A stretch of 64,000 nucleotides of DNA from Escherichia phage OLB35. The translations under genes were made by a program, and so were the position numbers. The notes under the pieces were generated by a model, which was not told where the DNA came from, ran no database searches, and saw only the letters and a program-made list of their open reading frames with translations. The stretch lies in sequence record MH992122.1; one strand, given 5' to 3'. This document shows positions 25,680 to 46,134 of the stretch, piece after piece. The first letter of the stretch is position 1; every line of letters starts with the position of its first letter.

Positions 25680-25708
25680 ACTATAACATAATCCTACCAA
25701 GATGTAAA
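25680..25708 (-). promoter_or_regulatory. Early promoter / PeSL-like element
   Basis: Minus-strand GTTTACA-N17-TATAGT; -10 embedded between arms GGTAGGA/TCCTACC. Confidence 0.5.
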
Positions 25709-25945
25709 CTACCGATTGTGTTTTAAATGTTGATAAAGTTCTTCAACTTGTTTAGGGTCCAAAACAATTAGGTCATTTTCTTGACGAAGATAAATCCATC
25801 CCTTATCACCAGGTCCATTTTTACAAAACATCACCGTCGTCATATCATCATCTTCAGCGCTTTCAGGTAAAAGTTCAAGTACACCGTCTTCAGATTTTCC
25901 AGTATAATCGTAAAGCATAATATCCTCACATAATCTCGTTAACAT
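25709..25945 (-). CDS. Hypothetical protein
   Basis: 78-aa ORF. Confidence 0.45.
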   Translation of the reverse strand: MLTRLCEDIMLYDYTGKSEDGVLELLPESAEDDDMTTVMFCKNGPGDKGWIYLRQENDLIVLDPKQVEELYQHLKHNR

Positions 25946-32014: not shown

Positions 32015-32078
32015 TTTTTGTTTCCTTGTTTGTTTTGATAGAGTAATTATACCATATTAATACTTAAGCGTAAACAAT

Positions 32079-35785: not shown

Positions 35786-35814
35786 ACTATAACATAGTCC
35801 TATAATTGTGTAAA
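35786..35814 (-). promoter_or_regulatory. Early promoter / PeSL element
   Basis: Minus-strand TTTACA-N17-TATAGT; -10 between inverted arms ATAGGACTA/TAGTCCTAT. Confidence 0.55.
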
Positions 35815-35827
35815 CAGTTTTGCGAAA

Positions 35828-37080: not shown

Positions 37081-37109
37081 ACTATAACATAGCCCTATCT
37101 TGTTGTAAA
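37081..37109 (-). promoter_or_regulatory. Early promoter / PeSL element
   Basis: Minus-strand TTTACA-N17-TATAGT with flanking GATAGGACT/AGCCCTATC arms. Confidence 0.5.
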
Positions 37110-37114
37110 CTGTT

Positions 37115-42329: not shown

Positions 42330-42404
42330 TGGTGACCCTGGCTGGTTTCGATCCAGCTACCTATCAGTTATGAGCTGACAGCTCTCCCATTGAGCTACAG
42401 GGCC
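42330..42404 (-). tRNA. tRNA with anticodon CAU (Met or Ile2-type)
   Basis: Acceptor GGCCCTG/CAGGGTC, D-arm GCTC-AATGGGA-GAGC, anticodon loop CTCATAA, T-arm GCTGG-ATCGAAA-CCAGC, encoded CCA; C4-G69/C5-G68 fit an Ile2-type tRNA. Confidence 0.8.
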
Positions 42405-42483
42405 TAAATAACTTTCTATTATGAAAGGCACTTTAGAGCACCTTTGGTAATAGAGGGTATGAATTAATAATAACACATAATTC

Positions 42484-42999
42484 TTAAAGCAAATCAATCA
42501 TTTTAACGGTTGGCAAAACGATTTCTTCTTCAATATAAGCAAATTCGACACGTTCAACTACACGCAAGAAATCGTAATCATAGTATTCAGAAGCATAGCC
42601 AAGAATATCAATAAGTCCTTGAGATATCTCATCGCCTTTCACAAAGAACAGGTCGAATACGCGGGCTTCGTCTTCTTCAGATTTATCACCAAGGTCTACT
42701 TCGATGCCAAAGACCTTTTTAATAAATTCCGGTTGGAGTTGGTCTGAGAACAGTCCTTCAACCAGATATTCGTAGATAATAAGCGAGCAACGACCGAATG
42801 GTGTATTACCGCAATAACGTTCGGCTTTGGTGCTAGAATGACGGCTCTTAAATTTCTTCAAGAGATATTTAAACTGTTGGAGCTCATGCTCTTCCACTTC
42901 AAACAATGTTTTGGTTTTATAGTTGTCACCATCACTTTCATAGGTAGTGACATCAATTACGTAGCCCTTAGGAATTGTACTGCCTAATCGAATATTCAT
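42484..42999 (-). CDS. Hypothetical protein
   Basis: 171-aa ORF. Confidence 0.5.
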   Translation of the reverse strand: MNIRLGSTIPKGYVIDVTTYESDGDNYKTKTLFEVEEHELQQFKYLLKKFKSRHSSTKAERYCGNTPFGRCSLIIYEYLVEGLFSDQLQPEFIKKVFGIEVDLGDKSEEDEARVFDLFFVKGDEISQGLIDILGYASEYYDYDFLRVVERVEFAYIEEEIVLPTVKMIDLL

Positions 43000-43003
43000 T
43001 TAA

Positions 43004-43294
43004 TCACCGTACCATATTAATGTAATTATATTCAATGCAACGTAATTTCAAAGGATTCTTGAAAATATCATATTCAAGAGGGCCTTTTTCTGTTTCAATA
43101 AAGAAATCAAAGTTAACTGTGTTAAATTTATCATCTTCACAGAGTAATTTAACCTGTGAAGACGAACGGTCAATGTAAACCTTTTCAACTTCAAAATATG
43201 TTAAAATGCCATAATCATCGATCAATGCTTTAGCTGCACGTTGATCGCTTTCGTATCCATTCTCGACAGATTTTACTTTAGCATAAAGAATCAT
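43004..43294 (-). CDS. Hypothetical protein
   Basis: 96-aa ORF. Confidence 0.45.
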   Translation of the reverse strand: MILYAKVKSVENGYESDQRAAKALIDDYGILTYFEVEKVYIDRSSSQVKLLCEDDKFNTVNFDFFIETEKGPLEYDIFKNPLKLRCIEYNYINMVR

Positions 43295-43653
43295 GAGTGT
43301 TCCACCGCTTCAAAAGTATGTGCATTTACAATCTGGTACCAGTCAAAATTTTCTTCAGCATTTTTGTAGATTTCACGAAGAGCTTCAACAGTTTTTCCTG
43401 TAGCAACAAGATCATCAATACCACCAAGAGGATAACAGTCATAACCAGCAAACAGAAGGAAATTAATAGTTTCTGTAGGTTCTGGATGCAGTGTACCATT
43501 GTCATCGACTACTTCAAAGAACATATAACCAGGCGATTTAGATTTAATCCAAGCCCATGCTTGAGCTGCTGAATCAAATGGTCTGCGTATCAAACGACAA
43601 TCAGGGTCTTTAGAAGGATTTGCTTCAAAATCTGCATATACATGATATTTCAT
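43291..43653 (-). CDS. Hypothetical protein
   Basis: 120-aa ORF with 4-nt overlap. Confidence 0.5.
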   Translation of the reverse strand: MKYHVYADFEANPSKDPDCRLIRRPFDSAAQAWAWIKSKSPGYMFFEVVDDNGTLHPEPTETINFLLFAGYDCYPLGGIDDLVATGKTVEALREIYKNAEENFDWYQIVNAHTFEAVEHS

Positions 43654-43839
43654 TTACTCACCTTTTGCAATTTTATCCATAACGATAGCGATTAAGCCGA
43701 TTAGAAATGCTACTACCAATGAGATAGAGTTTTCAGTTGTTGTCAGTAGTCCACAAATGAATCCTACAAACATCGAAAAGCTAAAAGCCATTGAAGCAAT
43801 TACTACAGCAACATTACGAATCAGTTCAGCGCGTTTCAT
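43654..43839 (-). CDS. Small membrane protein
   Basis: 61 aa with two hydrophobic helices (MKRAELIRNVAVVIASMAF...). Confidence 0.5.
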   Translation of the reverse strand: MKRAELIRNVAVVIASMAFSFSMFVGFICGLLTTTENSISLVVAFLIGLIAIVMDKIAKGE

Positions 43840-44265
43840 TTTATTTCTCCTTTACTCATTTTGTTTTGATAGGACTACTATAACATATCCATATAGGCTT
43901 GTATATCTTTATTTCAAATATATTGCGTATTTTTTATAGCCACCAGGCTCGTGTCGAAGACCTTTATCATTCGCAAAACGTTGAATGTTATTGAACTGGT
44001 TTTCATCGAATGATGATTTAATCTTAGCTTTAGATCCTTTAGTTATAGAAATAAACATCTCGGAAGACCCTTTCTTAAAGTCTGATGCAGATACTTCAAC
44101 ACCGTTCTTAGCAAGTGACCTCAGAATTGCATCTGCGTACACTTCATATGTGTCGAATATGAAAAAGTTTTGTTAGCTACCAAGCGTGATATATTGAGAA
44201 TCAGTTCAGCGCGTTTCATTTTATTTCTCCATTTACTCATTTTGTTTTGATAGGACTATTATAAC
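43819..44265. repeat. Direct repeat pair (~65 bp each) carrying a PeSL promoter plus the first codons of a gene
   Basis: gaatcagttcagcgcgtttcattttatttctcc...gataggact...ataacat at 43819-43885 and 44198-44265; the second copy starts a 32-codon ORF sharing MKRAELI with 43654-43839. Confidence 0.75.
43909..44142 (-). CDS. Hypothetical basic protein
   Basis: 77-aa ORF. Confidence 0.45.
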   Translation of the reverse strand: MYADAILRSLAKNGVEVSASDFKKGSSEMFISITKGSKAKIKSSFDENQFNNIQRFANDKGLRHEPGGYKKYAIYLK

Positions 44266-44286
44266 ATAGTCCTATCGGCATGTAAA
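44258..44286 (-). promoter_or_regulatory. Early promoter / PeSL element with perfect 10-bp inverted repeat around the -10
   Basis: Minus-strand TTTACA-N17-TATAAT; GATAGGACTA ... TAGTCCTATC arms flank the -10. Confidence 0.6.
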
Positions 44287-44290
44287 CTAC

Positions 44291-44578
44291 TTACAGAAGA
44301 GTTTTTGCAATAATTTTAAGCTGAGCTACAGAAATGTGCTTAGCTTTAAACAGTGCAGTCTCTTCAGCCGGAGAGATAACAATAGTAGCGCCATCTTTCT
44401 TAGCAGACCATCCATCCCCTAAGTAAACAGTACCTTTTACTTCTTCGCCGTCAGCCAGACTAATCATTGGTTTGCCCTCACGTCCTTTATTTGCTTTAAT
44501 AACTTCGGAAGTAAGGGTTGCTTCAGTCAGAGTAGAAACGTTAGCATCAGGTGATATAAATTCTTTATAGGTTTTCAT
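44291..44578 (-). CDS. Internal protein I-like (capsid-targeted)
   Basis: Starts MKTYKEFIS...; 95 aa; sits between the tRNA region and 57B as T4 ipI does. Confidence 0.6.
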   Translation of the reverse strand: MKTYKEFISPDANVSTLTEATLTSEVIKANKGREGKPMISLADGEEVKGTVYLGDGWSAKKDGATIVISPAEETALFKAKHISVAQLKIIAKTLL

Positions 44579-44624
44579 TTTATTTCCTTGAGGCTGTTTA
44601 TTTGATAGGATGATAGTAACACAC

Positions 44625-45395
<771 letters not shown>

Positions 45396-45399
45396 TTTA

Positions 45400-46134
45400 T
45401 TACCTTAAGATTTTTTCAATTTTATAATAAAGCTCTTCTAACGAGCCGTCGTTTGTAATAACTAAATCGCCTTCTTCAATAGGCAACCCAGCTTCTGTAA
45501 TATGTTTATCAGTGGATTCCGTACCAGAGCGAACCACATGAATAACTGTAGCACCCATCGCTCTAGCGGTTTCCATTTCATGGACTTGGCGTGTATCGGT
45601 TACAACATAGTAATCGAAATCACTTCCAATATAATCCATATAGTTTAATGCAAAAAGCTTAACCCAATACATACGGTCAAATAAATTAACGACAACATCC
45701 GTACCGAGGGCTTGCATAAGACGGCGGATCGACCATGTGTCGTTGATATTATTTATAGCTTCACGCAGGGCTTCATATGGTTTAATATCTAGATATGAAT
45801 ATCCACCTTCTAACGATGATAATACTTTAACATTATTAATTGGTAAATATTGACTTTGTAAATAAATTAGCGCTTCTTCCAATAATTCAATAACATCCAA
45901 CTTATTGAGATTTAATGGTGTTTCACGGTCGTATCCAATGCCTTCAAAGTATTCGTATTTCAACTCTGTGAATACATCAGGATTTTCAGCATGTCTACGT
46001 CCCCAGGCTATTGCTAGAGCGTCTTTAATTGGATATGCTAATTGGTATTTTACGGATTTAAAGTTTGAATTGATGTAATCAGCAGTAGTGTCTTTACCAC
46101 TACGTTTGATGCCACTTAAAAAGATTAGCTCCAT
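45400..46134 (-). CDS. 1: Deoxynucleoside monophosphate kinase gp1
   Basis: P-loop LSGIKRSGKDTTADY; T4 gp1-like; synteny 57A-1-3-2-4. Confidence 0.88.
   Translation of the reverse strand: MELIFLSGIKRSGKDTTADYINSNFKSVKYQLAYPIKDALAIAWGRRHAENPDVFTELKYEYFEGIGYDRETPLNLNKLDVIELLEEALIYLQSQYLPINNVKVLSSLEGGYSYLDIKPYEALREAINNINDTWSIRRLMQALGTDVVVNLFDRMYWVKLFALNYMDYIGSDFDYYVVTDTRQVHEMETARAMGATVIHVVRSGTESTDKHITEAGLPIEEGDLVITNDGSLEELYYKIEKILR

Follow-up and report, generated by a model that had tools for sequence, protein, structure and literature searches.

PeSLs combine an AT-rich stretch, a promoter, a stem-loop, a Shine-Dalgarno (SD) sequence and a start codon; their copies, some of them degraded to 'half' PeSLs, are mostly found in hyperplastic regions, and they border the indels that distinguish close relatives (PMC4122927; PMC2839356). 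They have been described in RB49/phi1, PST/T4 and nt-1/KVP40 (Arbiol et al. 2010, PMC2839356; Comeau et al. 2014, PMC4122927). As cited in these two papers, Repoila et al. 1994 (EMBO J 13:4181) dealt with analogous T-even elements at internal-protein (IP) loci, which the account in PMC2839356 gives as T4 early promoters with weaker AT-rich stem-loops; the RB15 record Z35082 comes from that work. Arbiol et al. regard the T-even elements as analogues, not homologues, of the RB49 PeSLs (PMC2839356). In morons and integron gene cassettes, too, a small gene moves with its own expression signals into intergenic sites (PMC2839356).

Our results concern a repeat in Escherichia phage OLB35, on which no paper was found in the literature, and in particular in a window of 64,000 nucleotides, the whole stretch of DNA that was analysed. 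It is probable that what has been duplicated is a PeSL-like regulatory cassette belonging to a T4-type IP locus, and that recombination left the present arrangement as a scar. The genome is that of an RB69-like T4-type phage (Mosigvirus): megablast returned about 300 T4-type phages, the best matches being Mosigviruses with identical gene order. On the minus strand this order is gp1-57A-57B/Acb1-ipI-[insert]-trna.4-trna.3-trna.2, in agreement with annotated Mosigviruses and with T4 (57B-ipI-trna.4 at the locus), and this gene content puts the repeat between 57B/Acb1 and trna.4, in the hypervariable IP locus. The genes that frame it are as follows.

45400-46134, minus strand: gp1, dNMP kinase.
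45165-45395, minus strand: 57A.
44710-45165, minus strand: 57B/Acb1 (Pfam Acb1, E 7e-59).
44291-44578, minus strand: ipI, internal protein I, a nuclease inhibitor (Pfam IPI_T4, E 1e-49), directly upstream of the intact cassette.
43654-43839, minus strand: trna.4, with a counterpart in T4, encoding a 61-aa conserved small hydrophobic protein (phrog_1692, E 1e-32).

The equivalent 57B-trna.4 interval of RB15 (Z35082) reads 57B-Ip5-Ip9-Ip7-Ip8-trna.4, and the annotation of RB32 describes Ip7/Ip9 as 'flanked by 43 bp direct repeat'. As far as the T-even IP elements are known from the accounts and records cited above, the correspondence with them is close: the locus (57B-trna.4) and the gene families (ipI, Ip7, Ip9) are the same, the element is likewise a T4 early promoter with an AT-rich stem-loop that aligns with the T4, RB15/RB32 and Mosigvirus copies, and the number and identity of the IP genes likewise vary between relatives. 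On the same basis, three differences stand out. Here the repeat runs 21 nt into the coding sequence of trna.4, which is not an IP gene; one junction appears to be illegitimate; and in place of an intact IP the repeat encloses an intragenic Ip9/Ip7/Ip9 mosaic that lacks the leader.

The repeat comprises about 69 nt, recurring at 43818-43886 and 44198-44267; a single substitution and a single indel separate the copies, and weaker similarity extends the repeat to 43813-43903 and 44193-44284. A repeat search reported 93% identity between 43813-43853 and 44193-44233 and 89% between 43851-43903 and 44232-44284, offset by a 1-nt indel; in a global alignment 71 of 74 positions are identical over 43813-43886 and 85 of 94 over 43813-43903. 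The sequence-only reading had put a ~65-bp repeat at 43819-43885 and 44198-44265, and it is indeed present and correctly placed, with a 33-nt core, GAATCAGTTCAGCGCGTTTCATTTTATTTCTCC, that occurs exactly twice (43818-43850 and 44198-44230; none expected from 100 shuffles). That reading had also made the repeat out to be a promoter, a palindrome, an SD and a gene start of seven codons, which the anatomy of the upstream copy bears out; the coding part is the first seven codons of trna.4 (MKRAELI; ATG AAA CGC GCT GAA CTG ATT). The parts of the two copies are listed below.

44198-44290, minus strand: upstream, intact PeSL-like cassette with promoter, stem-loop, SD, ATG and trna.4 codons 1-7.
44287-44281, minus strand: its -35 box, GTTTACA, of the T4 early promoter type.
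44263-44258, minus strand: TATAAT of its extended -10, TGtTATAAT, at a 17-nt spacer from the -35.
44276-44249, minus strand: 11-bp stem-loop embracing the -10, with the perfect stem GATAGGACTAT/ATAGTCCTATC.
44230-44227, minus strand: SD GGAG, after a CAAAAC... stretch and followed by 7 nt to the ATG.
44219, minus strand: ATG of the upstream copy, opening MKRAELI.
43840-43905, minus strand: downstream, degraded cassette before the real trna.4, with the left stem arm lost and the SD AGGAG.

The two copies are not equivalent, the -35 box and the left stem arm being degraded in the downstream copy only. The upstream copy is predicted to fold at -18.5 kcal/mol (z -4.83), and its promoter scores 11/12, with TG, against the PST/T4 consensus TTTACW-N17-TAYWAT; the downstream copy yields no stable hairpin (-3.2 kcal/mol, z +1.1), and its boxes (-35 TATACA/ATATACA; -10 TGtTATAGT, 43882-43877; 17-nt spacing) score 9/12, with TG kept. 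Common to both are GGAG, the 7-nt spacing and the ATG. A scan of 43500-45300 found no intrinsic terminator, so the hairpin is not a classical terminator.

The upstream copy thus has the make-up of a PeSL, with promoter boxes 17 nt apart that fit the PST/T4 consensus, a stem-loop, an SD and a start codon. The likeness extends to the AT-rich stretch and to the position of the stem-loop between the boxes or over the -10, these being the commonest positions in RB49/phi1, and at the level of the genome to many copies on one strand in variable, hyperplastic regions, to 'half' copies, to an association with indels (the cassette copies at the insert boundaries are boundaries of indels between close relatives) and to the mechanism proposed for PeSLs, mini-circles or homologous exchange. 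Promoter and attenuator activity and mini-circles have been demonstrated for the RB49/phi1 PeSLs only. Unlike morons and integron cassettes, it has no integrase or attC site and is transcribed in the same direction as its neighbours, and its mobility would depend on the homology of the regulatory element itself.

Related elements recur across the window. The palindromic core TTTGATAGGACTACTATAACAT is present in five copies where none is expected, and there are ten extended -10 promoters of the GTTTAC type, all on the minus strand; several of them contain this palindrome, and an SD and a start codon come after each one. The elements before ipI, Ip7, Ip9 and trna.4 in T4, CCU7, KAW3E185, Shf125875 and G2285 all align, and share the blocks GTTTAC, TGnTA, CCTATCAA and TAAAATGAAA. 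Three further cassettes lie at a distance from the IP locus.

25680-25709, minus strand: palindromic early-promoter cassette (ATAGGACTATGTTATAGTAGTCCTAT), followed by an SD and a small ORF; stem of 10-12 bp.
35786-35815, minus strand: the same type, with the same following parts and range of stem lengths.
37081-37110, minus strand: the same type, with the same following parts and range of stem lengths.

These three (at 25.7, 35.8 and 37.1 kb) are likely to be sites of other presence/absence polymorphisms. A GTTTAC-type early promoter at 32046-32075 (minus strand) precedes an ORF that starts MKTYQE..., an internal-protein leader, and this region is presumably a second IP locus (the ipII/ipIII region).

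The extent of the insert follows from comparison with CCU7, the closest relative, in which ipI, one cassette and trna.4 follow one another with no insert. The flanks (42400-43850 and 44198-44593) match CCU7 with 0 mismatches, and the first mismatches appear at 43851; the insert is therefore 43851-44197 (347 bp). The layout of CCU7 is shared by PECP20, APCEc01, HX01 and T4, and other relatives carry IP genes at the very same site: a 102-aa Ip7 in Shf125875 and Mizar, an 87-aa Ip9-type gene in KAW3E185, and Ip7 plus Ip9 in G2285, which has no ipI. Two cassettes flanking an IP gene are normal among relatives. The proposal of cassette-mediated recombination made from the sequence is supported by these relatives with no gene, Ip7 or Ip9 at the exact site, and by one insert boundary that falls inside the cassette homology; the comparative alignment suggested as its check gave the CCU7 result above. 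The resident, intact cassette is the upstream copy, which shares 100% identity with the sole cassette of CCU7; it would therefore be the gene remnant that entered the 5' end of trna.4, rather than a promoter that was placed upstream of an existing gene. The downstream copy is composite, identical to CCU7 from 43850 leftwards and donor-like, of the KAW3E185/G2285 type, right of 43851 (higher coordinates).

By its sequence matches, the insert is a mosaic of an Ip9 middle fragment, an Ip7 core, an Ip9 C-terminus and half of a degraded cassette, and two ORFs can be read across it.

44143-44197, minus strand: Ip9 middle fragment (..YITLGS*QNFFIFDTYE), 88-91% identical to KAW3E185/G2285 Ip9 over 44192-44143.
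44007-44140, minus strand: Ip7 core YADAILRSLAKNGVEVSASDFKKGSSEMFISITKGSKAKIKSSF, identical to Shf125875 Ip7 at 134/134 nt and to Mizar at 133/134.
43909-44006, minus strand: Ip9 C-terminal third DENQFNNIQRFANDKGLRHEPGGYKKYAIYLK*, 96.9% identical to KAW3E185/G2285 over 44007-43781.
43851-43908, minus strand: left half of a KAW/G2285-type trna.4 cassette, from the cassette alignments.
43909-44142, minus strand: 77-codon GTG ORF, the open part of the Ip9/Ip7/Ip9 mosaic, with the IP leader absent.
44121-44219 (including the stop), minus strand: chimeric 32-codon ORF MKRAELILNISRLVANKTFSYSTHMKCTQMQF*, with codons 1-7 from trna.4 and the rest from the out-of-frame Ip9/Ip7 remnant.

The gene held to be unrelated to its surroundings in the sequence-only reading is instead this leaderless three-piece mosaic of two internal-protein genes, and the 32-codon ORF was correctly said there to overlap it out of frame (by 22 nt). 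Each known IP family accounts for part of the 77-codon ORF: in PHROG profiles, residues 2-55 match Ip7 (phrog_2667, E 2e-14) and residues 43-77 match Ip9 (phrog_7673, E 1e-17), with the Ip7 core spanning profile positions 30-83 of 101 and the Ip9 C-terminal part positions 56-90 of 90. Of the 32-codon ORF, only the first ~22 residues resemble the trna.4 family phrog_1692, and weakly so (E 0.004). Pfam gave no match for the remnant, trna.4, Ip7 or Ip9.

All the full-length homologues of Ip7 and Ip9 examined carry the leader MKT(Y/F)xEFIxE(A/S), but it is missing from the 77-codon ORF, which begins at Ip7 profile position 30 and whose frame is shut upstream by a TAA (44175-44173, within the Ip9 middle fragment, upstream of the GTG at 44142). 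We take this N-terminal leader to be the capsid-targeting signal and prohead-protease cleavage site of T4 internal proteins. Its absence is the reason that the ORF is not filed here as a functional IP.

Between Ip7 and Ip9 themselves, BLASTP found homology in the 15-aa leader and none beyond it; a likeness between LDDEYADAILRSLAKNG and LDENQFNNIQRFANDKG was a visual impression only and was set aside. The motif (H/Y)(I/V)T(L/V)G, noted in the KAW3E185 Ip9-type protein and at 44143-44197, is conserved in Ip9-type proteins and is reminiscent of HxTx in 2H phosphoesterases, of which the adjacent Acb1/57B is one; as Pfam gave no match, this likeness is visual only.

Three junctions, each read from a single assembly, delimit the pieces of the mosaic. 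At J0 (44193-44198) trna.4 codon 7 (...GAACTGATTC) is joined to the interior of Ip9 (TCAATATATCACG...) with a microhomology of at most 2-3 nt. J1 (44140-44143) and J2 (44007) are in frame, with microhomologies of 1-3 nt, and their positions in Ip9 are at most 4 nt apart, so that effectively an Ip7 core has been inserted in Ip9. As both are in frame, the mosaic may at one time have worked as a gene, or may still do so. A full-length intact Ip9/Ip7/Ip9 donor was not found in searches of the phage collection or the protein-cluster collection, no other carrier of the arrangement was found in the phage collection or the JGI metagenomes, and J0 was absent from all the collections scanned (phage collection, IMG/VR and JGI metagenomes). 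The IMG/VR search for the exact junction patterns, which returned none, was of low power, its positive control, the canonical trna.4 start, being recovered from 3 contigs only.

The following course of events would account for the arrangement. The starting genome would have had the common ipI-cassette-trna.4 layout, as in CCU7, PECP20, APCEc01, HX01 and T4, and would have gained 347 bp from a relative carrying Ip7/Ip9-type genes. The left crossover is taken to be homologous because the boundary lies inside a stretch identical in all trna.4 cassettes (about 40 nt, with the SD, the ATG and seven codons), and the right crossover to be illegitimate because the partners at J0, trna.4 codon 7 and the interior of the Ip9/Ip7/Ip9 mosaic, share at most 2-3 nt. 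Such an unequal exchange between a CCU7-like genome and the donor would be one route; alternatively, a mini-circle carrying the Ip remnant, the cassette and trna.4 codons 1-7 may have been excised illegitimately from the donor and integrated by a single crossover. Either route yields exactly this product, which explains the duplicated gene start.

That cassettes recombine at this site is implied by the single cassette of CCU7, PECP20, APCEc01 and HX01, which is a hybrid: in its left half it agrees with the element that precedes Ip7/Ip9 in KAW3E185/Shf125875, in its right half with the KAW/G2285-type trna.4 UTR. From its sequence, such a hybrid is the expected product of IP-gene deletion through recombination between two flanking cassettes. 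Deletion from cassette to cassette therefore happens at the site, and the single-cassette layout is the common, older state, with the caveat on direction that CCU7 could derive from an ancestor resembling the window by deletion between the repeats.

About 400 bp from the insert, between 57B/Acb1 and ipI, lies a 54/55-nt tandem duplication (44624-44678 and 44679-44733, minus strand) whose copies differ at 2 sites. Its unit holds the last seven codons and the stop of 57B (DWAEDLK*), as well as parts of the ipI cassette: its AT-rich stretch, its -35 box GTTTACA and the left arm of its stem. There is one unit in CCU7, KAW3E185, Shf125875 and Mizar, where the 57B-ipI spacer is 76 nt long, compared with 131 nt in OLB35; the best phage records cover only 77 nt of the 131-nt query. 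The duplication is either a second private scar by ipI (from unequal exchange or slippage) or a caution on the assembly.

The latter possibility bears on the insert as well, for a mixed lysate, or reads that contain repeats, might have been mis-assembled into the duplication and the mosaic. No other genome searched shows the arrangement, the tandem duplication is a second private oddity close by, and the left boundary lies in a 38-nt stretch common to many phages, where an assembler could have switched paths. However, the repeat copies differ (about 89-97% identity) and have different flanks, while a collapsed or expanded repeat would be identical; the partners at J0, J1 and J2 share at most 3 nt and so offer no shared k-mer for a mis-join in the graph; and two-cassette layouts around an IP gene are normal in relatives. 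We therefore give an artefact little credence. Slightly less credible still is an origin in situ, in which an ancestor with the order ipI, cassette, full-length Ip9/Ip7/Ip9, cassette, trna.4 underwent ectopic gene conversion primed in the upstream cassette, copying the downstream trna.4 UTR plus 22 nt before switching back into the IP gene, and the CCU7 type arose by deletion. With more than 40 identical nt in common, the cassette cores could prime ectopic synthesis, and deletion between the two repeats of the window would give a hybrid cassette like that of CCU7. Yet the CCU7 layout and its hybrid cassette are common to the more diverged APCEc01, HX01 and PECP20 while the window's flanks are 100% CCU7, which argues that the window is the derived state, and no phage with a full-length mosaic is known. 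An origin in situ is thus less parsimonious than an insertion scar.

A different question is whether the product is a functional new operon, in which the 32-codon ORF would deliver ribosomes by termination-reinitiation to the GTG at 44142 and the leaderless Ip7/Ip9 chimera, unpackaged, would act early in the cytoplasm. The 32-codon ORF is probably translated, because its initiation region is identical to that of trna.4; its stop (44123-44121) lies about 20 nt from the GTG, and J1 and J2 are both in frame. Against this, the GTG has no SD upstream (TTCGACACATATGAA-GTG), and the only in-frame ATG of the 77-codon ORF (Met28) lacks a properly spaced one; the stop neither overlaps nor adjoins the start but falls 19-22 nt downstream of it, so that reinitiation would have to run backwards; and the in-frame TAA in the Ip9 fragment closes the frame above. 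The product lacks the leader carried by every full-length homologue examined, and it forms a one-member cluster on one contig in a collection of 5.8 billion protein clusters, so that no argument for function can be drawn from conservation; a contig look-up had no contigs encoding the 77-aa protein on record. The translationally coupled leader peptide proposed from the sequence is therefore unsupported, and we regard such an operon as improbable. The broader version, that cassette shuffling here gave birth to a gene, an in-frame mosaic of two IP families cut from its leader and expressed from the early promoter behind the 32-codon ORF as a cytoplasmic early protein (for example in anti-defence), seems to us a little more improbable again.

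On the insertion-scar reading, an intact early promoter, SD and ATG would now open a fortuitous 32-codon ORF, for which early transcription and translation are expected. The IP remnant behind it would have neither a capsid-targeting leader nor an SD of its own and, as far as its sequence tells, is most likely untranslated or non-functional. The gene trna.4 would now be served by read-through from the intact promoter together with the weakened extended -10 promoter of the downstream copy. Expression of the remnant is made more doubtful by the lack of the late-promoter motif TATAAATA and of a terminator in 43500-45300, and by an Rfam search at E<=1 that gave no RNA family over 43000-45500. Both ORFs are regarded as by-products of the exchange, on account of the missing SD, the TAA that closes the frame, the backward reinitiation over ~20 nt and the single known carrier.

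For annotation, this means that the call 'ip7 protein' on 43909-44142, which stands in the single database entry matched by the 77-aa product (Escherichia phage OLB35; 99% identity, 89% query coverage), is better taken as a probable pseudogene or remnant. Were the remnant expressed, it would illustrate how structural-protein genes can give rise to new early genes, but no observation here points that way, and the significance of the locus beyond documentation is small. The repeat is an ordinary trace of a known process in T4-like phages, the shuffling of genes by way of promoter cassettes. As such it provides a base-resolved example of how early-promoter/stem-loop cassettes mediate the gain and loss of IP genes in T4-type phages, and suggests that these exchanges are at times imprecise, a homologous crossover on one side being paired with an illegitimate one on the other, so that gene starts are duplicated and chimeric mini-ORFs and gene remnants without their 5' part are left behind.
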